NCBI GenBank assembly: GCA_035546335.1
Contig: DATKDP010000056.1
Location: forward strand, 120,577 to 184,576
Source of the DNA: Thermoanaerobaculia bacterium
GTDB lineage: Bacteria; Acidobacteriota; Thermoanaerobaculia; Gp7-AA8
Direction: 5' to 3'
Length of the DNA stretch: 64,000 bases
Part shown: positions 6,656-49,745 of the stretch, in pieces
How the letters are laid out: the number at the start of each line of letters is the position of its first letter
How positions within the stretch are numbered: position 1 is the stretch's first letter
The notes under the pieces: generated by a model
Told to the model about the DNA's origin: nothing
The model's input: only the letters and a program-made list of their open reading frames with translations
Database searches by the model: none
Translations under genes and position numbers: made by a program

Positions 6656-8233
6656 GTGCAAACGAAAATGCGCCTCACGAACAGGAACCGCTGCACCCCA
6701 CACGGGACGGCCTTCCGTCCGGTCGGACCGCGAGGCGTCATCTTTTTTCTGCTGGCCACAGCCATTTCTCTGCCCGCCCGCACCGACGATGACTTCTCTC
6801 TCGTCATCAGCTCCTCGTCGGCCAGAGCAGGCACTGTCACCGACGTTTTCGTCACGCTCGATGGAGATGCGCGCCCTGCCGCTCTCGCCTTCGTTCTCGA
6901 ATATGACGCAGGAATGCTCTTCGCCGACCCCGAGTCGGTCACCCTGCTCGCGGGATCGGAGTTCCGGCTGTCGGTTTTTGCGCTCGCTCCGGGACGGCTG
7001 GGAATCGTTCTCTACGATCCGCGTCCGCCCATCTCGACGCTCCCGGCGGGAGACATCGTGAGGCTTCGTTTCTCGATCCTGCCCGGCGGCGCAGGCTTCG
7101 CTCGCGTCGCAATCGCGGCCGACCCTCCGCCGAACGCTTCAGATTCGTCGGAGCGGCTTCTTCGAGCAGGCCTGCCAGCGAACCGGATCTCGGGGATCAC
7201 CATCACTCCACTGCGACCCGAGCTCCTCGTCTCGCCGCTGCGGCTCGACTTCGGATCCATTCCGACGGAAACATCAGTCACGAAACAGATCGTTCTCGCC
7301 AACATCGGAGAAGCACCCCTCGCCGTCGAGAGGATTCATCTCGACGATGAAGGCGCACCGTTCGTGCTCGGGCCCCTCCCCCCACTGCCGCTCGTTCTGG
7401 GCGCCGGCGAGAGCATGGCGATCGACGTCAGCCTGGCGGCTGAGATCGAGGGAAGTTTCGCTGCGCACCTGGTGATCGAGCATGACGGATCACCTCCCCG
7501 ATCGGTCACGATTCCCATCCTGGCAACGACCACCACAGGTTCCGGTCATGTCCATTCGACGCGCCTGGTGATTCCGGTCGTGACTCGCATGAAAGTCACC
7601 GACAGCTCACTCTGGCGCAGCACGCTGACACTCCACAATGACGGAGCTGCTCCGGCTTCGATTCGGCTCACGTTTCGTCCCGGCACTTCGGATGCGCTTC
7701 TCCGAGAGCTGCTCGTCGAGCCGGGCCACACGCGCGGGCACGATGACCTCCTCTCGGAGCTGTTCGAACTGGAGGGAGGGATCGGTCCGCTTCTGGTCGA
7801 AGCATCGTCGCCCGATGTCGTCGTTCGCAGCGCAGCCGTCCGCGACGATGGCGAGGAAGGGACCATCAGCCAGCAGATACCGACGCTCCAATGGAGCGAG
7901 CTGTTACGAAGTGGGGAGCGGGGCGTCCTCACAGGGCTGGAACGATCGATCTCGAAGGAGACCAGGATCGCGCTGATCAACTTTTCGTCCGCAGCGATCA
8001 CCCTGCGGCTCGATGTTCTTCTCGCGGACGGGACATCCGCGGGTCTCGTCGACTACACCGTGGAGGGAGGGGAGTTTGTCCCCATGGTCGACGTTTTCGA
8101 CAGGCTCGACATCGACGATGCAAAGAACGTCACCGTGGTGGTGACTTCGCGCTCCCCGAACGCGACTTTCTTTGCTTACGCCTCGACGCTCGATCTCAGG
8201 AGCGGCGCTCCGCTGTTTCAGCCGGTCCGGTGA
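6656..8233 (+). CDS. secreted hypothetical protein with cohesin-like and choice-of-anchor-D-like beta-sandwich domains
   Basis: Signal peptide (GVIFFLLATAISLPA). LDFGSIPTETSVTKQIVLANIGEAPLAVERI motif typical of choice-of-anchor D domains. Divergent from the sigma-54 regulator. Confidence 0.55.
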   Translation: MQTKMRLTNRNRCTPHGTAFRPVGPRGVIFFLLATAISLPARTDDDFSLVISSSSARAGTVTDVFVTLDGDARPAALAFVLEYDAGMLFADPESVTLLAGSEFRLSVFALAPGRLGIVLYDPRPPISTLPAGDIVRLRFSILPGGAGFARVAIAADPPPNASDSSERLLRAGLPANRISGITITPLRPELLVSPLRLDFGSIPTETSVTKQIVLANIGEAPLAVERIHLDDEGAPFVLGPLPPLPLVLGAGESMAIDVSLAAEIEGSFAAHLVIEHDGSPPRSVTIPILATTTTGSGHVHSTRLVIPVVTRMKVTDSSLWRSTLTLHNDGAAPASIRLTFRPGTSDALLRELLVEPGHTRGHDDLLSELFELEGGIGPLLVEASSPDVVVRSAAVRDDGEEGTISQQIPTLQWSELLRSGERGVLTGLERSISKETRIALINFSSAAITLRLDVLLADGTSAGLVDYTVEGGEFVPMVDVFDRLDIDDAKNVTVVVTSRSPNATFFAYASTLDLRSGAPLFQPVR

Positions 8234-17626: not shown

Positions 17627-17850
17627 GTGGCAGGCTCGGGGAAAGTCAACTCGGGGCTCGAGGCTCGAGGCTCGAGGCTCGAGGCTCGAGGCTCGGGGCT
17701 CGGGGCTCGGGGCTCGGGGCTCGGGGCTCGGGGCTCGGGGCTCGGGGCTCGAGGATTCCCACGACCTGGATTTCGAGCCTCTAGTCTCGAGCCTCTAGTC
17801 TCGAGCCTCTAGTCTCGAGCCTCTAGTCTCGAGCCTCTAGTCTCGAGGTG
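17627..17850. repeat. tandem heptamer array (GGCTCGA)5(GGCTCGG)8 followed by (TCGAGCCTCTAGTC)5, forming a long imperfect palindrome
   Basis: Direct reading of 17660-17752 and 17773-17848. The 14-mer contains TCGAGCC, the reverse complement of GGCTCGA. Short copies also lie at 49318-49340 and 49690-49715. The proS stop codon (TAG) lies inside the 14-mer array. Confidence 0.9.
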
Positions 17851-28833: not shown

Positions 28834-31800
28834 ATGGCAGATACTGACAAACCGCCCGTGACGGAAGAGCCTCATCGGTACGAGCGCGAAGGGCTGGAAC
28901 GCCAGAAAGGGCGGCCGATGTGGGGTTGCGTTCGTGCACTCCTCGCCCTCTTCCTGGTGATCGGCGCCATTCTCGGCCTGATCGGTCTCGGGGCTTATCG
29001 ATACCTCGGCAGTGCACGCTTCGCGGAGCTCGTGCGCGCACGGATCGAAGCCAATCTCGAGGCACGCCTGGGACGCGATGTCTTCATCGGCAGAGTCACT
29101 GTCATTCGCACTCCCAATGCGCGCGTGATCCTCGACGACGTCCGCATCGGCAATGCACCAGGAGCGCTTCAGGAGTGGTTTGCCACGGTCCGGCAGGTGG
29201 AGATCGTCGGGGGGATCGACTCGTTCCTCCAACGGCGCGTGCGCCTGGGCCACGTCGACATCCGCGATCCGCACTTCTACTTCGAGGTTTTCCCCGAGGG
29301 TCTGCCGCTGACTCACAACTTCCCCACATGGAAGCCGAGTGGGCCCCGCAGGTTCGAGATCGTGCGCGTCGACGTCTCGAGGCTTTTCGTAACCGGCGGA
29401 CACTTCGACTTTCTCGACCGGCGTCACGATATCCGCGCGGAAGTCACCGGGATTCGATCCGAAGTGATTCCGACGATTCGCGAACAGATCTATCGCGGCA
29501 CCATGGTCAGCCCCGAAGTGATCGTGCGGCTTCAGGATTATCGGCCGTTCTCCCTCTCGCTCGAAGGCAGCTTCCTCTATCGTCCCGGATCGCTCGACAT
29601 TCAGAAGATCGTGATGCGAGGCCGCGGCATGGATGTGGGAATCGACGGGCGCCTTCAGCCGATCACCGAGGGAGCGTACGACCTCGGAATCCGCTCGACG
29701 GTCGACCTGGCGAGGTTGCGGGAGATCTTCGCGATCGAACGGGAGCTGCAGGGAAGTGCCACCCTGGACGCGACGCTGCGCGGCAGGCAGGCGGACTTCA
29801 CTCTCGAGGGTCCGTTCTCCGTTCCGCAACTGGTGGCGGACGCCTACGAGCTCGGCGAGCTGCGTGGAACGCTTCATCTCACCGACGAGCGCTTGTCGGC
29901 GAAGATCGACACCGCACGCTACGGAGGGGGCACACTGTCGGGCAGCTACCGGCTCGCTGAATATCGGGATCCCTACGCGATGGATGTCGACCTCGCCTTC
30001 GATTCGATCTCCCTCGAGAAGCTCTTCGAAGATTGGGGACTCGCCGAGACGGGTCTCCGAGGTGCCGCGACAGGCACCCTGTCGTATGCGTGGGAGAAAG
30101 ATAGAATCCTCGATGGGCGCGGCGAAGGAACGGCGCGCCTGCGACCCGGCGCTGTCGCCTTCGGCAGTGCCCCCTATCCAATGCCTTTCGCTGGATCGGC
30201 GCGATTCGGCCTCACGCGGGGCGTGGTCGATTTCCGGCAGGCGGCCTTCCAGACCGACAAGACGCAGATCGAGCTCGGAGGGACGCTTCGCATCGAAGAC
30301 CTTCGAGCGAACCTTCGTGTCGATGTCACCTCGAGCGATCTGGCCGAGCTGGACAAGATCGCCCTGAACTTCGCTCGCGCGACCGGAACACCCGATCCCG
30401 AGCTTCTCGGCCTCGGCGGAACGGGCACGATACGCGGAAGCGTCGAGGGTCCGCTCGATTCACCTCTCGTCGTCGCGACCGTCGAAGCCCCCACCTTCAT
30501 CTACAACAACATCGAGATCGGCTCGGCCTCGATTGCTCTGCGCTACGACGGTCCGGCCGAGCGGCTGACATTCGAGCGCGCCCGCTTCACGCGAGATGAC
30601 GCCGTGATGCTCATGACCGGGAGCGTGACCTTTCCCTCGAGTGCACCTACGCGCTTCGATCTCGCGTTCGTCGCGACCAACTGGCCGGTCGCTCATGCAA
30701 TCTCGGTCGTCGAGCTCGATCTGGTCGCCAGCGGGCTCGGAACCGGCGAGCTCCATGTCTCGGGAACGCCTGATGCGGGCACGGTTCGTTTCGAGGAGAT
30801 GGTCATCACGCGCGAGCGGGCGGAGCTGCGCCTCAACGGTCTCGTGCGCTGGGCTCCGGGCGAAGGCAATGTCACATTCGATCTCGCGATTGCCGCACGC
30901 TCGTTCCCCGTCGCCGATCTCGTGGCGTTTCTCGACCTCGGAGACATTCCCATCAGTGGCGAGCTGACCGGGACCCTGCGGCTCGAAGGACCTCGCACGG
31001 CTCTCGAAGGGGCGGGCTCGATCACGATCCGGAGCGGAACGATCTACGACGAGCCCCTCGATCTGGCGACGGCCGACATTCTCTTCACGACCGGACTCAT
31101 GCGCGTGACCCATGTCGAGATCCAGGCTCCGGCAGGGACGCTGACCGGCGAGGCCGAATACGAATTCGCCACCGAGCGGTTCAGCTATCTCGTCACCGGC
31201 ACGGAACTCGACATCTCGCGAATCGGCGCTCTCTCCTGGCTGGCGGGTCTGATCGGCGAAGCGGGGCTGCGCATCACATCCAGCGGAGCAGGGACACTGC
31301 AGCAGCCGGAGATCGTGCTCGAGGCTTCGATCGAGGGCCCGCCCCCTGCAGGCCTCGAGATCGGCGACGACGCGGCGCCTCCGACGTTCTATCTGGCGAT
31401 CCGCAATGGAGAGCTGATCGTGCGCGGATCGGCCTGGGGAGCAGTCGAGATCGAGGGGACCGGCACCGTACTGGATGGGCAGCTCGATGGGCTCGTGCAG
31501 CTGAGAATCGCCGACCTGGCGCGCTTTGTCACGGTCTTCGGCGGGATGACGACTGTACCGGTCGCGGGTGAGATCGTCGTCGACCTGCGACTCGGCGGAG
31601 AGCTCGGCGAGTTGACGGCTCTGCGAATCGAAGGGACGGTTCCCACGTTCGACATCGACATCGCGGGCCATCCGTTCGTGGCTGAAGAGCCCATCCGCTT
31701 CACTCTCCACGAAGGACGCGTTGACATCGAGTCGTTCCGACTGGCACGCGACACTTCGGCCTTTTCCATCTCGGGCTTCGTCTCGTTCGTCGAGGATCGC

Positions 31801-33093
31801 CGGATCAACCTGACGATTCGCGGTGCTCTGGAGGCAGCGCTCCTGCAACTGTTCGTGCCGGATACCTCCGCGGCGGGCACGGTGAACATCGCCGCCGGGA
31901 TTACCGGGACAATCGACGAACCGCGCGTGAACGGAACGGCCGAGATTCTCGACGGTCAGGTGCGGATCGCCGGCTTTCCGCAGCTCATCGGCGACATCAT
32001 GGCTTCGATCGTGTTCCATGGCGACCGCCTGGAGATCGATTCGTTCCGTGCGACGCTCGGCGGAGGAGCTCTCGTCGCCGGTGGAGACATCTGGCTCAGC
32101 GGTCTCTCGGTCGAGCGGGTACGAATCAACATGCAGGGGACCGACGTCGCTATCCGTTATTTCGAAGGGCTGTCGATCACCGGCGATCTCGATCTTCGGC
32201 TGACAGGAGATGCGGAACGTGCACTGCTGCAGGGCGACGTTCGCGTCAACCGCGCTCTCTACTTCAGAGACTTCGACTTTACAAGCTCCATTCTGAATCT
32301 CCTCCTGGAACGGCGTGGTCTCGCTCCCGTGGTCGCCGCGAACTGGCAGGAGCGAATCGGGCTCAGCATCAACGTGAGCGCTGCCGAGACTCTCGCCATT
32401 CGCAACAACATCGCCGATGTGACAGGGAGTGCCCAGCTGGAGCTGACCGGCACTCTGGCCAATCCGAACGTTCTCGGCGTGGTGACGATCGACGAAGGGG
32501 GAACCGTCCGGTTCCAGGATGTCGACTATCGCCTGGTGCGCGGCACGATCAATTTTCAGAATCCGTTTCGAATCGATCCGTACTTCGACGTGACCGCCGA
32601 GGCGCGCGTTCAGGAATACGACCTGACGGTGAACCTGACGGGAACGCTCGACCGCATCACCCCGACCGTGACCAGCGATCCGCCGATCAGCGATCTGACC
32701 ATCCTCTCCCTGATCGGACCCTCCTCGATCGGAGCAGACCGCGGCGGCTTTCCCTTCAGCGCACAGTCACTGCAGATGACCGGCACCTCGCTCCTCTACC
32801 AGAGCCTGGCGGGCCTGATCGGGCCGCGCATCCTCCCCTTCGCCGATGCCGTGCGGCTCGAGCTGGAAGGGGTGACCGCGGACCCGACGGTCACGGTCGA
32901 AAAAAGAATCCAGAACGACCTTCGAGTCATCGTCATCTACAACACCCGAACGAACCAGAACCGCGAGATCATCGAATGGCAGGTCACACCCGACTGGATC
33001 CTCGAGCTTTCCCGTGACAGCGAGAAGGAGGACACCTATCTGATCAATGCCGTCGACGCCAGGTTCCGCAGGCGATACGAAGGACGGTGGTGA
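28834..33093 (+). CDS. tamB: translocation and assembly module subunit TamB (AsmA-like, DUF490 C-terminus)
   Basis: 1419 aa. N-terminal signal-anchor, repetitive beta-rich body, C-terminal DUF490-like region. Followed by an Omp85 gene with overlapping start. Confidence 0.75.
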   Translation: MADTDKPPVTEEPHRYEREGLERQKGRPMWGCVRALLALFLVIGAILGLIGLGAYRYLGSARFAELVRARIEANLEARLGRDVFIGRVTVIRTPNARVILDDVRIGNAPGALQEWFATVRQVEIVGGIDSFLQRRVRLGHVDIRDPHFYFEVFPEGLPLTHNFPTWKPSGPRRFEIVRVDVSRLFVTGGHFDFLDRRHDIRAEVTGIRSEVIPTIREQIYRGTMVSPEVIVRLQDYRPFSLSLEGSFLYRPGSLDIQKIVMRGRGMDVGIDGRLQPITEGAYDLGIRSTVDLARLREIFAIERELQGSATLDATLRGRQADFTLEGPFSVPQLVADAYELGELRGTLHLTDERLSAKIDTARYGGGTLSGSYRLAEYRDPYAMDVDLAFDSISLEKLFEDWGLAETGLRGAATGTLSYAWEKDRILDGRGEGTARLRPGAVAFGSAPYPMPFAGSARFGLTRGVVDFRQAAFQTDKTQIELGGTLRIEDLRANLRVDVTSSDLAELDKIALNFARATGTPDPELLGLGGTGTIRGSVEGPLDSPLVVATVEAPTFIYNNIEIGSASIALRYDGPAERLTFERARFTRDDAVMLMTGSVTFPSSAPTRFDLAFVATNWPVAHAISVVELDLVASGLGTGELHVSGTPDAGTVRFEEMVITRERAELRLNGLVRWAPGEGNVTFDLAIAARSFPVADLVAFLDLGDIPISGELTGTLRLEGPRTALEGAGSITIRSGTIYDEPLDLATADILFTTGLMRVTHVEIQAPAGTLTGEAEYEFATERFSYLVTGTELDISRIGALSWLAGLIGEAGLRITSSGAGTLQQPEIVLEASIEGPPPAGLEIGDDAAPPTFYLAIRNGELIVRGSAWGAVEIEGTGTVLDGQLDGLVQLRIADLARFVTVFGGMTTVPVAGEIVVDLRLGGELGELTALRIEGTVPTFDIDIAGHPFVAEEPIRFTLHEGRVDIESFRLARDTSAFSISGFVSFVEDRRINLTIRGALEAALLQLFVPDTSAAGTVNIAAGITGTIDEPRVNGTAEILDGQVRIAGFPQLIGDIMASIVFHGDRLEIDSFRATLGGGALVAGGDIWLSGLSVERVRINMQGTDVAIRYFEGLSITGDLDLRLTGDAERALLQGDVRVNRALYFRDFDFTSSILNLLLERRGLAPVVAANWQERIGLSINVSAAETLAIRNNIADVTGSAQLELTGTLANPNVLGVVTIDEGGTVRFQDVDYRLVRGTINFQNPFRIDPYFDVTAEARVQEYDLTVNLTGTLDRITPTVTSDPPISDLTILSLIGPSSIGADRGGFPFSAQSLQMTGTSLLYQSLAGLIGPRILPFADAVRLELEGVTADPTVTVEKRIQNDLRVIVIYNTRTNQNREIIEWQVTPDWILELSRDSEKEDTYLINAVDARFRRRYEGRW

Positions 33094-35972
33094 TGTCGCC
33101 CGAGCGAGCAACCAGGGCCGGTCTGATCCGCTCCGGCATTGCCGGACTGGCAATCCTGCTGGCCAGCTCGCCTCTCTGCGCGCAGTTCGAGTTTCGAGGG
33201 CTCGTCGTCCGCGACATTGCGATCCGGCCCGATGCCCCCATCGACGAGCCGTTGGTCCGCGAGCTGATCGCGATCCAGCCAGGCGAGCCGCTCTCCATTG
33301 CTGCCGTTCAGTCGACAATCAAGCGCCTCTACGGCACGGGAGACTTCCGTGACATCCGCATCGAGGGCGACACCGCCGGCGATGGAACGGTCGACATCGC
33401 GCTCATTCTCTCGCTCAGCTACCGGATCGCGACGCTCGCGATCGAAGGGGCGGGAGATGACCGCGACCGCGCCAGGCGGGAAGTTCTGATTCGCGTCGGC
33501 GACGTCCTGAGCCTCGATGCGGTCGATCGCAGTGCAGTCGCCATCCAGCAGATGTTCGCGCGGCGAGGTCACCTCGCGGCATCCGTCGATCCCGAAACTC
33601 GGTTCGAGCGCGAGCAGAACCTCGCCGACGTCATCTTTCACGTCACCCCCGGACCGCAGGCGACGATCGCCGCGGTCGAGATCGACGGAGAGACCGCGCC
33701 ATTCACGCGCGAGCAGATCATCGACGCGATGCGCGTGCAACCGGGCGACGCATTCCGTCCCGATCGCGCCCGCCGCGCCGCCGATCGGGTGCGCGCCTTT
33801 CTCTCCCGACGCGACCATCGACGCGCCGACGTCCGCTACCTCGGCGAGACGCATGACCCCGAGACCGACCAGGTCACTCTCCGTTATCGGGTCAATACCG
33901 GTCCCATCGTTCGCGTCGAGGTCACCGGCGTTCCTCGCAGATCCGTCCGCCGTCTCCTTCCCTTCGGTCGCGATGACGAGTACTCGGAGGATCTGATTCA
34001 CCGTTCGGCCTCTCGAATGGTGACCGAGCTCCAGAGTCGAGGCCACTTCCTCGCGGCAGTCGACACGGAAGAAAGGCTCGAAGGGAACGAGTGGATCGTC
34101 GAGTTCCAGGTCCGCCCGGGCCCCGTATACCGTCTTTCCTCGGTCGAATTTCAGGGCAATTCACAGATCTCGGAAGCGCAGCTGCGGGACGTGGTCCAGA
34201 TCCATCGCCGCGGCGGATTCCGGAGCGTGATTGCCGGGCTGTTCCGGCGCCCTACGGGATTGACCCAGGAGATGCTCGCCCAGGATCGGGATGCACTCGA
34301 AGCGTTCTACCGCACGAGGGGATTTACCGAGGTCGAGATTCGCCAACCGGTCGCCGCGCCGTTCCCTGATCAGTCGCTCGTCGTCACCTTTCCGATCCTC
34401 GAGGGTCCGCAGACCGTCTTGACCGAGGTCAGGCTCGAAGGGAATGAGGTAATCAGTACGGCGCGCCTTCCGAATCCGAAACTGACGACCGGCTCTCCGC
34501 TGAATCCGATTCTGTTGACCGGCGACATCATAGCGCTGCAGACGTACTACGCCGTGCGAGGCTACGTCGAAGTTCAGGTCGCCCCGCGCATTACTTTTAC
34601 TTCCGACAAGACCGGCGCGGAGCTGATCTACAGCATCACCGAAGGTCCTCAAGTCAACGTCGACCAGATCATCGTTCGAGGCAACACCTACACCGATCGT
34701 GACGTCATTCTGAAGAAAGTCTCCATCGAGAAAGGCGATCCATTCAGCTACCGGTCGATCTACCAGGCGCAGCGCGATCTGTATCGACTCGGAATCTTCC
34801 AGCGTGTCGATCTCATCCCCGAACAGGCAGGCACGAACGTCGGGCTCCGCAACATCGTCGTCCAGGTCGAAGAGGGAAGAAACCTGACGATCGCCGGATC
34901 GGTCGGCTATTCCACCGATCAGGGAGCACGCGGATCGGTCTCCGTCTTTCACCGGAACCTGTTCGGCTCGGCGCGCTATCTCGGCGTCGAGGCTCGTATC
35001 TCCCAGCGCGAGGATCGCTATGTGCTGACGTACCGGGAGCCATTCATCTTCAACTACGACATTCCGACGCAGCTCACCATCTTCCGCGCCGAGGAGCGCG
35101 CAGGTCGCGTCCGCGATGCCGAGTTCCAGCGTCTCGGTACCTTCATCGAGGCCTCGCGCGTCGTGGGGCTTCGCCAGCGGTGGGCTCTGCGTTACGAGTA
35201 CAAAGTGACTCGCTGCGTTCGAGGGGCGGTCTGCGAAGCGGCAACAGGCGACATTCCCATTCCCGGTCTTCCGCTCGAAGATCAGGAGGTCCAGATCTCC
35301 AGCCTCTCGCCGACCTGGTTCTGGGACAGCCGCGACGACCCGATCAATCCGAGCCGTGGGCTGTTCGCCAGCTCGACACTCGAGTACGCGTTTCCCCTGT
35401 TTCAGGCGGAGACGCAATTCCTGAAGGCAGTCGAGCACGCAACGTGGTATCGACCGCTGAGTGAGCGAACCCTGGTCGCCCTCTCGGTTCGCATTGGCCT
35501 GATCGAGCCACTCGGCAGGAACGAAGTCGAACAGACCGTCCCCATCTCCGAGCGGCTCTATGCCGGCGGCGAGCTGACTCATCGCGCCTTCGAGCTCGAC
35601 TCGCTCGGCATCGAAGGCGAGACCATCGTCTGTCTTCGTCCCTCGGAAGTGGAGAACGGCCCGCCGGAAGTGATTCCCTGCAGCGAGGGAGGACGCCTCA
35701 CTGCACTCGGCGGAAAAGGCATGGTCCTGCTCAACGCCGAATACCGCTTCCCGATCTTCGCCAGCCTCAGCGGAGCGCTCTTCGTCGATGCCGGAAACGT
35801 CTGGCGGACGATCGGCGACATCGACACGGGCGATCTTCGCTACGGTGCAGGCGTCGGAGCCCGCTATCTGACGCCCGTCGGACCGTTGCGAGTCGACATC
35901 GGGTTCAAGCTCGATCGCGAGGCCTTCGAAGATCCATACGCCGTCTTCGTCACGCTGGGGTTCCCGTTCTGA
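33087..35972 (+). CDS. Omp85-family outer-membrane protein assembly factor (BamA/TamA-like, multiple POTRA domains)
   Basis: Signal peptide, POTRA repeats, C-terminal 16-strand barrel ending ...VFVTLGFPF. Confidence 0.85.
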   Translation: MVMSPERATRAGLIRSGIAGLAILLASSPLCAQFEFRGLVVRDIAIRPDAPIDEPLVRELIAIQPGEPLSIAAVQSTIKRLYGTGDFRDIRIEGDTAGDGTVDIALILSLSYRIATLAIEGAGDDRDRARREVLIRVGDVLSLDAVDRSAVAIQQMFARRGHLAASVDPETRFEREQNLADVIFHVTPGPQATIAAVEIDGETAPFTREQIIDAMRVQPGDAFRPDRARRAADRVRAFLSRRDHRRADVRYLGETHDPETDQVTLRYRVNTGPIVRVEVTGVPRRSVRRLLPFGRDDEYSEDLIHRSASRMVTELQSRGHFLAAVDTEERLEGNEWIVEFQVRPGPVYRLSSVEFQGNSQISEAQLRDVVQIHRRGGFRSVIAGLFRRPTGLTQEMLAQDRDALEAFYRTRGFTEVEIRQPVAAPFPDQSLVVTFPILEGPQTVLTEVRLEGNEVISTARLPNPKLTTGSPLNPILLTGDIIALQTYYAVRGYVEVQVAPRITFTSDKTGAELIYSITEGPQVNVDQIIVRGNTYTDRDVILKKVSIEKGDPFSYRSIYQAQRDLYRLGIFQRVDLIPEQAGTNVGLRNIVVQVEEGRNLTIAGSVGYSTDQGARGSVSVFHRNLFGSARYLGVEARISQREDRYVLTYREPFIFNYDIPTQLTIFRAEERAGRVRDAEFQRLGTFIEASRVVGLRQRWALRYEYKVTRCVRGAVCEAATGDIPIPGLPLEDQEVQISSLSPTWFWDSRDDPINPSRGLFASSTLEYAFPLFQAETQFLKAVEHATWYRPLSERTLVALSVRIGLIEPLGRNEVEQTVPISERLYAGGELTHRAFELDSLGIEGETIVCLRPSEVENGPPEVIPCSEGGRLTALGGKGMVLLNAEYRFPIFASLSGALFVDAGNVWRTIGDIDTGDLRYGAGVGARYLTPVGPLRVDIGFKLDREAFEDPYAVFVTLGFPF

Positions 35973-36000
35973 CCGAAGGGGCGGAGGGAGTGCGGTGCAA

Positions 36001-36340
36001 CTCGTGGTGAGCGCGAAGCGCCACCACCGGTCACGGCACGACACGTCATGAAGTCGCGGCACCCCGAAGGGGTGAATGGAACACAGCCGGTGGTGAGCGC
36101 GAAGCGCCACCACCGGAACTGCGACGTTCCGCCGAAAGAACGCGGCACCCCGGAAGGGGTGCCCGGATCCCCTTACCAGAGGAATCGTGAATCGAACTCG
36201 AGTCCATTCGCTTCACCACCGGCTGTGTTCCGGGCACCCCTTCGGGGTGCGGGATGTGACGATGTGTTGTGCCCTGACCGGTGGTGGCGCTTCGCGCTCA
36301 CCACCGGCTGGAATCCCTGCACCCCTTCGGGGTGTCGTTG
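36001..36340. repeat. composite palindromic cluster of two alternating hairpin motifs (H1 CCGGTGGTGAGCGCGAAGCGCCACCACCGG; H2 GCACCCCGAAGGGGTGC)
   Basis: H1 at 36003-36030 and 36086-36115, reverse at 36278-36310. H2 at 36057-36075, 36143-36165, 36233-36255 and 36317-36338. Left-arm units are reverse complements of right-arm units around about 36190. Confidence 0.85.
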
Positions 36341-36381: not shown

Positions 36382-36624
36382 ATGGCCAACGAGATCGAAC
36401 AGATGTTGCGCGAGATGTTCGGCGAATCGTGGAACAAGCTGACGAAGTTTCAGTCGGAGCAGGTCGCCAAAATCACGTCCAGAGTCGAGGATCTCGCCCG
36501 AGCTGCTGTCCGGGATGACCTGGCGCGGCTGGCATCCGAGGTCGCGGAGCTCGAGCGCCGCGTGGCCATGCTCGAGGAGGAACGGGTCAAGACGGCAGCG
36601 GAAGGAACCCAGGCGAATTTCTAG
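36382..36624 (+). CDS. small coiled-coil hypothetical protein (80 aa)
   Basis: GGAG RBS. MANEIEQMLREMFGESWNKLTKFQSEQVAKITSRVEDLARAAV... predicted helical. Confidence 0.4.
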   Translation: MANEIEQMLREMFGESWNKLTKFQSEQVAKITSRVEDLARAAVRDDLARLASEVAELERRVAMLEEERVKTAAEGTQANF

Positions 36625-47846: not shown

Positions 47847-49271
47847 TCAACCGAGCGGCAACTGCTCGAGCAGCCTTCTGAGGCGCCTCAGCGTCCTCTC
47901 GCGTCCCAGGGCGATCATGACGTCGAAGATCGGCGGAGAGTTGCCGACCCCCATCAGCGCCACCCGCAGCGGATGAATGTACTTCGCCGCCGAGACCCCC
48001 TCCCCCTCCGCGAGCTTACGCAGCGCCGCTTCTGCCGCCGCTTCGTTCCACTCGCCGAGCGCCGAAAACGCCTCGAGAAGAGCGTCCAGCCGTCTCGTCA
48101 CGTCCGCCCCTTTCAGATGCTTCTTCACCGCCTCATCGTCATAAGCGATCGTTTCGTCATCGACGAAATAAGGAGCGATGAGCTCCGCGAGGTCGCGCAG
48201 CGTCCGCCCCCGGGCTTGATTCAGTCGGATCACGCGCAACAGCCGCTCCCCATCATCGATCGCGACGGTGAGAAACGGCTCGAGATGCGGAACGATCTCC
48301 TCGGGCGGCTTGCGGCTCAGATACTGACCGTTCATCCAGACCAGCTTGTCGGCATCGAACACGGCCGGAGCCTTGTGCACATCACGGAGGTCGAACGCCT
48401 CGATCGCCTCCTCGCGCGTGAGAATTTCCCGATCGCCCCCGGGCGACCAGCCGAGAAGCAGCAGGAAATTGAAGAGAGCGTCGGGAAGGATGCCCATCTC
48501 ACGATACTCCTCCGCGGACGTCGCGCCCGTCCGTTTGCTCAACCGCTTCCGATCGCTGCCGAGGATCAGCGGCAGGTGTGCGAACTGCGGCGGCTCTGCG
48601 CCGAATGCGCGGAAGAGAAGAATATGCTTCGGGGTGTTCGACAGATGATCGTCACCGCGGGCAACGATCGTTATGCCCATGTCGATGTCGTCGACCACCA
48701 CGGAGAGGTGATACGTCGGGTGCCCGTCCGATCGCAGAACTACGAAATCGTCGATCGTCTCTCCCTCGAAGTGAACCGGGCCGCGGATCAGATCGTCGAA
48801 ATCGACCGGGCCGGGCGGGACGCGAAAGCGAACGACGAAACGCTCCTCCTCCCGCGACTCTCCCCTGTCGGCTGCACTCCGGCACTTGCCCGAGTAGCGA
48901 TAGGAACGGCCGTCCTTTTCCGCTTCCTCGCGCTCGCGCTCGAGCTCTTCGACCGTGCAATGACAGCGGTAGGCACCGCCGCGCTCGACCAGCTCGATCG
49001 CCCGCTGACGATATCGGTCGATGCGATCGCTCTGGTAGATGGGTCCCTCGTCCCACGCGACACCGAGCCACTCGAGCGAAGCGACGATCTGCTCGGCATG
49101 ATGCTGCCGCGAGCGCTCCGCGTCCGTGTCCTCGATCCGCAGAAGCATCGTGCCGCCGTAACGCCGTGCGTGCAGCAGATTGAAAATCGCCGTCCGCGCA
49201 CCTCCTACATGGAGGTACCCCGTCGGAGAAGGGGCGAATCGAAGCTTCATTCGGTCGTTGATCTCACGCAT
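47847..49271 (-). CDS. gltX: glutamyl-tRNA synthetase
   Basis: KLRFAPSPTGYLHVGGARTAIFN (HIGH), KLSKR (KMSKS). Start taken at MREINDRMKLRF; the longer ORF upstream is a translation of the repeat element. Confidence 0.9.
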   Translation of the reverse strand: MREINDRMKLRFAPSPTGYLHVGGARTAIFNLLHARRYGGTMLLRIEDTDAERSRQHHAEQIVASLEWLGVAWDEGPIYQSDRIDRYRQRAIELVERGGAYRCHCTVEELEREREEAEKDGRSYRYSGKCRSAADRGESREEERFVVRFRVPPGPVDFDDLIRGPVHFEGETIDDFVVLRSDGHPTYHLSVVVDDIDMGITIVARGDDHLSNTPKHILLFRAFGAEPPQFAHLPLILGSDRKRLSKRTGATSAEEYREMGILPDALFNFLLLLGWSPGGDREILTREEAIEAFDLRDVHKAPAVFDADKLVWMNGQYLSRKPPEEIVPHLEPFLTVAIDDGERLLRVIRLNQARGRTLRDLAELIAPYFVDDETIAYDDEAVKKHLKGADVTRRLDALLEAFSALGEWNEAAAEAALRKLAEGEGVSAAKYIHPLRVALMGVGNSPPIFDVMIALGRERTLRRLRRLLEQLPLG

Positions 49272-49299
49272 TCGAGAGCCGGAAAGTCTACCCCACCCG

Positions 49300-49745
49300 G
49301 CCCGGCGTCGAGTAGCGAGGCTCGGGGCTCGAGGCTCGAATGGCAACCGGTCTTTGGCCGCGTCGATGGTTCTCAGGAAACCCCGTCGAATTCTCGTAGG
49401 GGCGAAGCATTTGCGCGCAGGCCGCAGCGACAGGCTCGCGTTACCGGAGCGCAGCGCAATAGCTTCGCCCGGGTGCTTGCGAGAATGTGACATGGCGGTG
49501 GGTCGATTCGCGCCGCCCTGCAACCCGGGGCGGCGCGGGACGCCCGCTCTCCCGCAGAGGTTCGTTCGATCATCGCAAGCACCCGGACGAAGCTATTGCT
49601 CTCCGTTACGGCGTTGCAAGCCCGCCGCTCTGTCCATCGCGCAAATGCTTCGTCCCTACGAGGGCCGCCCGTCGATGTTCCGGAAGCCCCCCTCGAGCCT
49701 CGAGTCTCCAGCCTCCCCCCCGCGCATCTCCGCTACAATCGATGG
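49300..49745. repeat. composite repeat cluster: heptamer fragment, MITE-like copy (reverse), GC hairpin, MITE-like copy (forward), heptamer fragment
   Basis: 49318-49340 GGCTCGGGGCTCGAGGCTCGA. 49394-49480 element copy 2 (reverse). 49527-49553 GGGGCGGCGCGGGACGCCCGCTCTCCC. 49575-49662 element copy 3. 49690-49715 CCTCGAGCCTCGAG. Confidence 0.85.

Follow-up and report, generated by a model that had tools for sequence, protein, structure and literature searches.

The closest described relatives of the element reported here are systems in which a short palindromic repeat accompanies a Y1 transposase of the HUH type. In the "REPtrons" of E. coli and Pseudomonas, repetitive extragenic palindromic (REP) sequences, arranged as bacterial interspersed mosaic elements (BIMEs) or as REP doublets forming hairpins (REPINs), are found together with a REP-associated tyrosine transposase (RAYT) (PMC3116915, PMC3337134, PMC6006769), and each tnpA-REP is tied to its own REP family (PMC6006769). 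Recognition, cleavage, and rejoining of hairpins in single-stranded DNA (ssDNA) are established for E. coli TnpA-REP and for IS608/ISDra2 (reviewed in PMC6006769). REPIN-RAYT systems are mostly inherited vertically within lineages, according to the RAREFAN preprint. Di Nocera et al. (2013, PMC3733652) describe bacteria of the Planctomycetes-Verrucomicrobia-Chlamydiae (PVC) group as rich in GTAG repeats and in flanked tyrosine transposase genes, with families in O. terrae and R. baltica, and, with PMC6006769, acidobacterial TIRYT/TIRtrons and class 3 TnpA-Y1 enzymes with CnGA-footed structures, of which Solibacter usitatus has ~600 copies. TnpA-Y1 enzymes of subclass 1.2, found mostly in Cyanobacteria and Bacteroidetes, are IS200-like in sequence, low-copy, not insertion sequence (IS)-like, and generally devoid of terminal structures; REPs have been reported only for subclasses other than 1.2 (Quentin et al. 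2018, PMC6006769). Here we describe a cluster of hairpins at positions 35973–36335 of a 64-kb stretch of DNA (the window) on a contig of an uncultured Thermoanaerobaculia (Acidobacteriota) metagenome-assembled genome (MAG). We consider it probable that these hairpins form a non-autonomous repeat cluster of the REP/REPIN type, amplified locally and decayed in part, whose family is linked to a Y1 transposase. The element is a selfish one of the REP/REPIN type and not a conserved regulatory RNA, and the copy in the window may be a relic.

The cluster occupies the ~410-nt gap between a TamA-like Omp85 gene (33087–35972) and an open reading frame (ORF) of 80 aa (36382–36624). An earlier annotation made from the letters of this DNA (the sequence-only reading) had called the Omp85 gene bamA-like; it is preceded by, and pairs with, a gene for TamB (28834–33093), which makes it TamA-like and not BamA. 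Both flanking genes lie on the + strand, and the cluster therefore sits between unidirectional genes, as REPs do when they lie between unidirectional or convergent genes. The gap is built from two kinds of hairpin. H1 (CCGGTGGTG-A-GCGC-GAA-GCGC-CACCACCGG; 30 nt) has a 9 + 4 bp stem with a 1-nt bulge and a GAA loop, and H2 is a small hairpin of the form (G)CACCCC-GAA-GGGGTG(C). H1 is present three times and once more as a 16-nt stump, and H2 four times and once more as a half remnant directly 3′ of the tamA stop codon. The modules follow one another as [remnant-linker-H1]-S1-[H2-linker-H1]-S2-H2-centre-[stump of H1-linker-H2]-S4-[H1-linker-H2], in which S1, S2, and S4 are long spacers and the right half lies on the opposite strand. 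The left arm repeats with a period of 86 nt and the right arm with one of 85 nt, and the arms are inverted around position ~36185; segments 36057–36116 and 36278–36337 are 90% complementary, the arrangement of inverted REPs in one long hairpin that characterizes REPINs. The three H1 and four H2 hairpins counted in the sequence-only reading, as well as its forward and inverted units around a centre, are all borne out by these data.

Neither the H1 nor the H2 matches were reproduced by any shuffle of the window, which excludes chance. When folded as RNA, the 411-nt intergenic region forms one giant hairpin of −271 kcal/mol, compared with −174.8 ± 6.6 kcal/mol in shuffles (z = −14.5 for the + strand and −16.1 for the − strand). 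As ssDNA, H1 folds with −15.5 kcal/mol (z = −6.8), in keeping with the short (20–40 bp), G+C-rich, imperfect palindromes of REPs. All three copies of H1 have the same 27-nt core, and three of the four H2 copies agree in their 15-nt core (CACCCCGAAGGGGTG); the spacers have diverged, with S1 and S4 homologous at 68% identity and S2 scarcely alignable. Identical hairpin cores among diverged spacers indicate either that the sequence of the hairpins was kept unchanged or that recent copying brought them into surroundings of greater age.

The same modular structure is found in other phyla. Eleven loci from Planctomycetota and Verrucomicrobiota carry the inner part of H1 (AGCG-NA-GCGA) together with the whole module grammar: a small G+C hairpin whose loop reads GAA, GGA, or GGC, a linker of 10–12 nt (consensus CAGCnnnTAG), an H1-type hairpin, a spacer of ~20 nt, and a second small hairpin, which in Verrucomicrobiota reads GCACCCC-GGCA-GGGGTGC. 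The unit of the family spans ~58 nt and consists of a small hairpin h (equivalent to H2), the linker with its foot, and a long, bulged H1 whose loop is of the GNA type. CAG serves as the foot in the window, and mostly (G/A/T)TAG in other family units; the other 11 units of the first alignment have GTAG (five), ATAG or TTAG (four), GTGG, which fits GT[AG]G (one), and ATAA (one). A covariance model (R1) built from this alignment of 13 units scores the intact window units at 62–63 bits (E ~1e-13) and also recovers copies that had not been selected by the exact stem. A family-level scan of metagenome contigs yielded 120 loci, ~55 of which are true members by this model, and the family is distributed over genomes of Planctomycetota, Verrucomicrobiota, and Acidobacteriota and ~55 metagenome contigs. 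The eleven loci came from a looser scan for the outer stem of H1 alone, which gave mostly chance matches. Three matches to the family pattern on viral contigs, all at ~23 bits, were rejected as stem-only chance matches, and most CAG-footed metagenome matches proved to be chance matches in coding DNA.

Both hairpins of the unit covary. Small hairpin h, which no search pattern included, shows pairing in 100% of cells across the 13 aligned units; three of its five pairs have changed on both sides, and its covariation score was reached in 0 of 500 shuffles. The outer stem of H1, evaluated in 20 units (18 copies unselected by the exact stem and the two window units), is 94% paired, with four of eight pairs changed on both sides and, again, 0 of 500 shuffles reaching the score. 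G-U pairs are absent from all 466 cells of the two counts. The loop of H1 with its closing pairs fits GCGNAGC, a motif that the available text of PMC13037366 describes as an extraordinarily stable DNA mini-hairpin. Covariation in the absence of G-U pairs, the GCGNAGC loop, and the stable ssDNA folds together favor a constraint on DNA hairpins. Conservation further suggests that the small hairpin and the linker are part of the recognized substrate.

Individual members of the family resemble the window in detail. On contig L155, the 3′ end of a transposase gene is followed by a small hairpin, a 27-nt spacer, an H1-type hairpin, the linker CTGGATTCCGG, and a small hairpin, an order that matches the right arm of the window module by module. 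The linker is similar to the window's CTGGAATCCCT and has the same CAG foot. The encoded transposase, of which only the 3′ end of the gene lies on the contig, is diverged (45% identity to the main type) and has the same motifs. In L242, a forward/reverse element that lacks the gene and lies at an unrelated site, the foot is CAG and the arm is nearly identical to that of L155, which indicates that gene-carrying and gene-less copies have ends in common. The inner GCGCGAAGCGC variant of the window is present in L159.

The link to a transposase is provided by the arrangement of adjacent units. In a census of 83 full-length family units, neighbors run forward-then-reverse in 24 of 27 cases, with gaps of 62–159 nt (13 cases, gene-less), 502–564 nt (seven), ~1,185 nt (three), and 1,726 nt (one). 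Six of the seven gaps of 500–560 nt were inspected: four hold a readable ORF of ~148–162 aa (L162, L146, L154, and L234), L181 holds a frameshifted remnant, and L191 has no recognizable transposase in its ORF listing or by tblastn. The three gap ORFs that were scanned match Pfam Y1_Tnp (E = 3e-22 to 3.5e-18). By tblastn, transposase genes or remnants lie beside units in 13 loci. The gene is flanked by inverted units in L162, L146, L154, L234, L192, L204, L175, L246, L247, and L248. The association was also found in the reverse direction: all three loci fetched via the protein, one of which is a Terriglobia MAG, have a unit ~50 nt upstream and an inverted unit ~60–66 nt downstream of the gene. 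When ORFs from the 11 PVC genome loci were compared all against all by BLAST, no recurrent neighbor appeared; the transposase link surfaced only with the larger metagenome set.

A profile of these transposases retrieved at least 7,978 homologues at E ≤ 1e-15, many of them on short contigs. The 120 best-scoring homologues are 56–99% identical to the query, nearly all at least 72%, and are often named RayT in IMG. Homologues named by NCBI come from Terriglobia, Verrucomicrobiae, and Sumerlaeota, with near-identical proteins in different phyla. Among the interpretations offered by the sequence-only reading, that of a distinct REP family accordingly agrees with what was found, a multi-phylum family of structured palindromes whose inverted pairs flank a Y1 (IS200/RAYT-type) gene.

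Several of these loci have features of their own. In L225 (56–1895), a forward and a reverse unit 1,726 nt apart enclose an ORF for a 467-aa DDE_Tnp_1 transposase, which appears to be an IS nested in a repeat element. L192 (4217–5518), L204 (258–1559), and L175 (20–1320) carry the same transposase element with ~600 extra nt between one unit and the gene; this stretch may have been inserted, or the element may have a longer form. In L246 (635–1081), L247 (10001–10447), and L248 (331–777), the Y1 gene lies directly upstream of Peptidase_M16 genes in all three cases, a neighborhood that points to one set place in the chromosome and not to insertion at random.

A number of observations weigh against the assignment of the cluster to a REP/REPIN-type system. 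The assignment rests on comparison of sequences and folds. The main-type transposase is a 148-aa Y1 HUH protein, and the ORF that was scored reaches 59.9 bits with the NCBIfam IS200/IS605 model NF033573 (cutoff 55) and only 20.1 bits with the RAYT model REP_Tyr_transpos NF047646 (cutoff 80); its best solved relatives are ISDra2 TnpA structures, and E. coli TnpA-REP is not among the Protein Data Bank (PDB) matches at E ≤ 0.01. The CAG foot of the window departs from the canonical GT[AG]G. No further unit was found in the 64-kb window, even with six mismatches or with the covariance model, and no transposase gene was found there by tblastn; the absence of further copies in 64 kb rules out only densities above ~1 per 20 kb. 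The multi-copy status of the repeat and its cognate enzyme in the source organism were addressed in the 64-kb window only. The exact core of H1 had no match in 185,579 species genomes, Joint Genome Institute (JGI) metagenomes, and viral contigs, collections that do not contain the source MAG (the window's own copies were not recovered) and that consequently say little about its copy number. In L247, only the two flanking units are present in 20 kb, and the family can be low-copy. Another genome carries units on two contigs (L059 and L111).

Additional searches were negative within their scope. Comparison of the cluster with plasmids (blastn) gave no match, and the spurious 101-aa ORF across the cluster, used as a mismatch-tolerant probe of 5.8 billion proteins, gave no candidate. 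A weak tblastn match of the transposase at 36154–36249 of the window was rejected, as it is a translation of the hairpins (HPEGV) and not a gene remnant. A test of whether gene-less elements sit in long stop-to-stop ORFs flags the window's own intergenic cluster in high-GC DNA and was discarded.

The history of the locus is apparent from its orthologs. The closest homologues of the window's TamA are ~53% identical, and in the four relatives with enough contig past tamA (L002, L003, L005, and L006) only 11–85 nt separate tamA from a small ORF, with no cluster there. The small ORF of the relatives (L002 6916–7152; L003 7013–7240; L005 6860–7087; L006 6938–7180) encodes 75–80 aa of coiled coil with no Pfam domain and lies on the opposite strand, convergent to tamA. 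Alignment of the L002 and L003 proteins with the window's 80-aa ORF shows that they are homologous (38–44% identity); orthology of the L005 and L006 ORFs is assumed from size, position, and strand. In the window, the 80-aa ORF is co-directional with tamA, 410 nt away, and followed by holA, where the relatives have Mpo1-like/adh_short genes instead. The repeat cluster is positioned precisely at the breakpoint of the small-ORF inversion; together with its absence from the orthologous loci, this identifies it as a lineage-specific cluster at a rearrangement junction. In a second Thermoanaerobaculia population of the same sample (L004; TamA 52% identical), the contig in the independent Logan assembly stops ~88 nt past the tamA stop, and the stretch present (6850–6938) contains no H1 or H2 sequence. 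An exact-protein look-up found neither the 80-aa ORF nor the 961-aa reading of TamA; the form of TamA listed in the database has 959 aa.

These loci bear directly on an alternative that we regard as unlikely, namely that the cluster is an RNA element of the tamBA operon that acts as a terminator, stabilizes the 3′ end against exonuclease attack, or serves the 80-aa ORF as leader or attenuator. Such a role would suit its location, from immediately behind the tamA stop to a point 46 nt short of the small ORF's start codon with its AGGAG Shine-Dalgarno sequence, and the extreme stability of the predicted RNA structure. REPs have been hypothesized to act in transcription termination and mRNA stabilization (PMC3733652). 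The four relatives, however, have no cluster at this locus, and elsewhere its units are found in either orientation, amid unrelated sequence contexts and flanking a transposase gene. Their stems covary without G-U pairs. A scan of the whole window with Rfam 15 gave no match at the gathering threshold, and the permissive mode gave only sub-threshold models of miRNA precursors, which are expected because any long hairpin gives them. Between 35500 and 37000, no + strand hairpin is followed by a T-run, and the one − strand site is no more than is found in shuffles. These results do not support the terminator or attenuator array, or the small RNA, of the sequence-only reading. Had the hairpins acquired a role as RNA, it would be by exaptation of the repeat and would not explain how the repeat arose.

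Also little favored is the possibility that the units are the ends of an ordinary IS of the IS200/IS605 type, with the gene-less pairs as derivatives resembling miniature inverted-repeat transposable elements (MITEs) or palindrome-associated transposable elements (PATEs) and the window as a dead PATE; we give it a small chance only. In that case the family would be an active, selfish IS and not a domesticated RAYT/REP system. The profile scores and the ISDra2 relatives described above speak for this possibility, as does the very large size of the family, with many members on short contigs, and near-identical proteins in different phyla suggest horizontal spread. The ends of IS200/IS605 elements differ from each other on the left and right, are direct with their hairpins on the same strand, and are often accompanied by tnpB. 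Here, in contrast, the units that flank the gene are inverted copies of each other. No tnpB-like ORF appears among the top-3 ORF listings between pairs or in the gene tables of L246–L248, although no search was aimed at tnpB. The gene keeps its Peptidase_M16 neighbor in three loci from at least two organisms. Moreover, the Y---Q--HH motif (YIARQEVHH) is present in the six transposases that were aligned, with Y114, H121, and H122 invariant and position 118 a Q in the five legible sequences. This motif, on which the assignment rests, is that of TnpA-Y1 subclass 1.2, whose members are low-copy and not IS-like (PMC6006769). The ordinary-IS account and a REP/REPIN-type repeat differ only in whether the gene itself moves.

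Within the REP/REPIN-type cluster, the individual units can be followed in order along the window. The decayed start of the first unit, E0 (35973–36000, + strand), consists of the 3′ half of an H2-type hairpin (CCGAAGGGGCG, 35973–35983) and a lengthened linker, and pairs with 36314–36330 in the giant fold. H1 copy 1 (36001–36030, +) has the same 27-nt core as the other copies and a degenerate 5′ arm (CTCGTGGTG; CTCG for CCGG), and gives a partial match to the covariance model (36004–36027, 21.8 bits). It is followed by spacer S1 (36031–36058, +), the homologue of S4 on the other arm. The intact forward unit (36059–36118, +) comprises H2 copy 1 (36059–36074), the linker AATGGAACACAG with its CAG foot (36075–36086), and H1 copy 2 (36087–36116); it scores 62.0 bits with R1 (E = 3.8e-13) and folds as ssDNA into two hairpins (−22 kcal/mol, z = −6.0). 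Spacer S2 (36117–36143, +), which aligns poorly with S1 and S4, leads to H2 copy 2 (36144–36163, +; GGCACCCC-GGAA-GGGGTGCC), which comes after H1 plus spacer, has an 8-bp stem and a GGAA loop, and is one loop base apart from the Verrucomicrobiota version. The centre of the palindrome (36164–36206, not assigned to a strand) is unique sequence with no ORF and no similarity to the transposase.

The right arm, on the − strand, opens with a truncated reverse unit (36207–36250) that contains H2 copy 3 (36234–36250), a linker ending in ACAG (36223–36233), and the first 16 nt of H1 (CCGGTGGTGAAGCGAA, 36207–36222). The H1 stump is cut at the loop; the unit is 92% complementary to 36059–36096 and matches R1 at 36202–36250 with 19.4 bits. 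Spacer S4 (36251–36277, −) is the inverted homologue of S1. The intact reverse unit (36276–36335, −) comprises H1 copy 3 (36278–36307), the linker CAGGGATTCCAG with its CAG foot (36308–36318, given on the + strand), and H2 copy 4 (36319–36335); it scores 62.9 bits with R1 (E = 2.2e-13), is 90% complementary to 36057–36116, and folds as ssDNA with −22.5 kcal/mol (z = −6.2). Linkers s1 and s3 have GGAACACAG in common. The feet of the window read ACAG, CCAG, and ACAG, rather than the unpaired GT[AG]G of GTAG-superfamily REPs.

The independent Logan assembly of the same sample stops at window position 36033, with H1 copy 1 at the contig end. At this end, a 30-mer common to copy 1 and the reverse-complemented copy 3 gives way to different sequence. 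The Logan assembly graph is built with k = 31, and the break fits a branch point of a 31-mer graph, so that the independent assembly saw both H1 contexts. This supports the structure of the cluster and argues against an artefact of a single assembler. It is very improbable that the cluster has nothing to do with a mobile family and arose purely locally, from a terminator hairpin duplicated in tandem and by fold-back, or from an error of assembly: the lack of other copies in the window, the lack of the exact H1 core in every public collection searched, and the relatedness of the arms by local duplication (S1 and S4; the shared linker sequence of s1 and s3) would suit such an origin, but membership in the family (E ~1e-13), the linker, foot, and hairpin order common across phyla, the same inner variant in L159, and the support for both H1 contexts do not, and local duplication accounts for the number of units, not their origin. 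Readings as a CRISPR array or as integron attC sites were ruled out by the 86-nt period, the mixed orientation, and the absence of cassettes.

Two further stretches of the window fold strongly. At 17640–17850, in an intergenic region, ~5 heptamers GGCTCGA and then ~9 heptamers GGCTCGG precede a 14-mer (CTCGAGCCTCTAGT), repeated ~5 times, with partial complementarity to the heptamers; this is the most stable 120-nt fold of the window (−88 kcal/mol, z = −6.2), and its sequence is unrelated to H1 and H2. A heptamer palindrome of similar style, (GGATCTC)n ... (GAGATCC)n, lies upstream of the small ORF in L003 (7241–7330), and such palindromes may be characteristic of the genomes of these Thermoanaerobaculia. 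At 49440–49600, a 26-nt inverted repeat (CAATAGCTTCGCCCGGGTGCTTGCGA / TCGCAAGCACCCGGACGAAGCTATTG) surrounds a G+C-rich hairpin at the end of ORF 47973–49490 and is among the most stable local folds of the window (z ~ −4).

A plausible course of events for the REP/REPIN-type cluster can be proposed. Deletion derivatives of the transposase-flanking element, which lack the gene and have two inverted units 62–159 nt apart, sit at unrelated intergenic sites in other genomes. In this lineage, one of them would have come to lie behind tamA; one arm would then have been lengthened when its 86-nt unit was duplicated in tandem, and parts would have decayed, leaving one unit with a degenerate 5′ end and one H1 cut at its loop. 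By analogy with the enzymes studied in other systems, the Y1 transposase would act on units in ssDNA, recognizing H1 with its unpaired base and 5′ foot, cleaving, and rejoining, and such an enzyme may have placed or copied the units here. The identical hairpins among diverged spacers would then reflect selection by the enzyme or recent copying, and any effect on stability or termination of the tamBA mRNA would be a by-product. More tentatively, and with the odds against it, the family could represent an undescribed REPtron/REPIN system built on an IS200-like enzyme of subclass 1.2, with a bipartite guide structure, in which both the unit and the enzyme are nearly unchanged across Planctomycetota, Verrucomicrobiota, Acidobacteriota, and probably Sumerlaeota. 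If so, it would be a horizontally spreading living intermediate that links IS200 and RAYT systems, and the cluster in the window would exemplify elements that drive local rearrangement, here at a site where a conserved small ORF was flipped relative to tamA.

For annotation, the region should be labeled as a repeat, and the three spurious ORFs across the cluster should not be called genes. The cluster marks a lineage-specific rearrangement beside the tamBA genes of outer-membrane assembly. The interest lies mainly in the cross-phylum family and its IS200-like enzyme and less in the copy of the window: the family has a well-defined unit of ~58 nt with two covarying hairpins and ties an IS200-like, non-IS subclass to REP-type repeats in phyla in which such systems have received little study. 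Its near-identity across phyla contrasts with the lineage-bound, mostly vertical picture of REPIN-RAYT systems, and the origin of RAYT domestication could be tested with one enzyme and one oligonucleotide.

In terms of known systems, the element resembles REPtrons in its imperfect, G+C-rich palindrome, which has one unpaired base and a short 5′ foot, in inverted paired units able to form one long hairpin, in intergenic clusters after genes, and, in its relatives from other genomes, in a Y1 HUH gene that is flanked by inverted units and has gene-less copies elsewhere. It differs in that the ~58-nt unit is bipartite, with an extra covarying small hairpin and a conserved linker (CAGCnnnTAG) before the REP-like hairpin; in that the foot is CAG in the window and the enzyme falls below the RAYT equivalog cutoff and bears the IS200-like signature of subclass 1.2; and in that unit and enzyme differ little among three phyla, in contrast to the mostly vertical inheritance of REPIN-RAYT systems and to the tie between each tnpA-REP and its own REP family. 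As judged from the available text of PMC3733652, the GTAG superfamily likewise has an unpaired (G)TAG tag at one end, as do most relatives of the window, and forms tail-to-tail and head-to-head dimers and clusters; the 12–13-bp stems of GTAG-24, with a 1-bp bulge at the tenth position, have the geometry of H1. In contrast, the tag of the window is CAG, and that text describes no associated small hairpin or linker. The numbered GTAG families were compared with the unit by their description.

The TIRYT and class 3 systems are alike in that Y1 genes of Acidobacteria lie between inverted repeats or atypical hairpins, copies of which are dispersed, but they differ in the motifs of the enzyme (NHVH, W[TA], and YV..EQ in class 3; subclass 2.1 with helix-turn-helix (HTH) domains in most TIRYTs) and in their foot or terminal inverted repeat (TIR) sequences (CnGA; GGGGWSAS). 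With IS200/IS605 elements and PATEs the family shares a Y1 HUH enzyme of ~150 aa (Pfam Y1_Tnp, NCBIfam IS200, ISDra2 TnpA as the nearest solved structure) and end hairpins with an extrahelical base; its ends, however, are inverted copies, and its gene occupies a conserved chromosomal position in the three loci examined. With subclass 1.2 it shares the Y---Q--HH motif and short proteins (148 aa) with a conserved C-terminal stretch; whereas no REP association is reported for that subclass (PMC6006769), the genes described here occur in PVC bacteria and Acidobacteriota and are flanked by structured inverted units.

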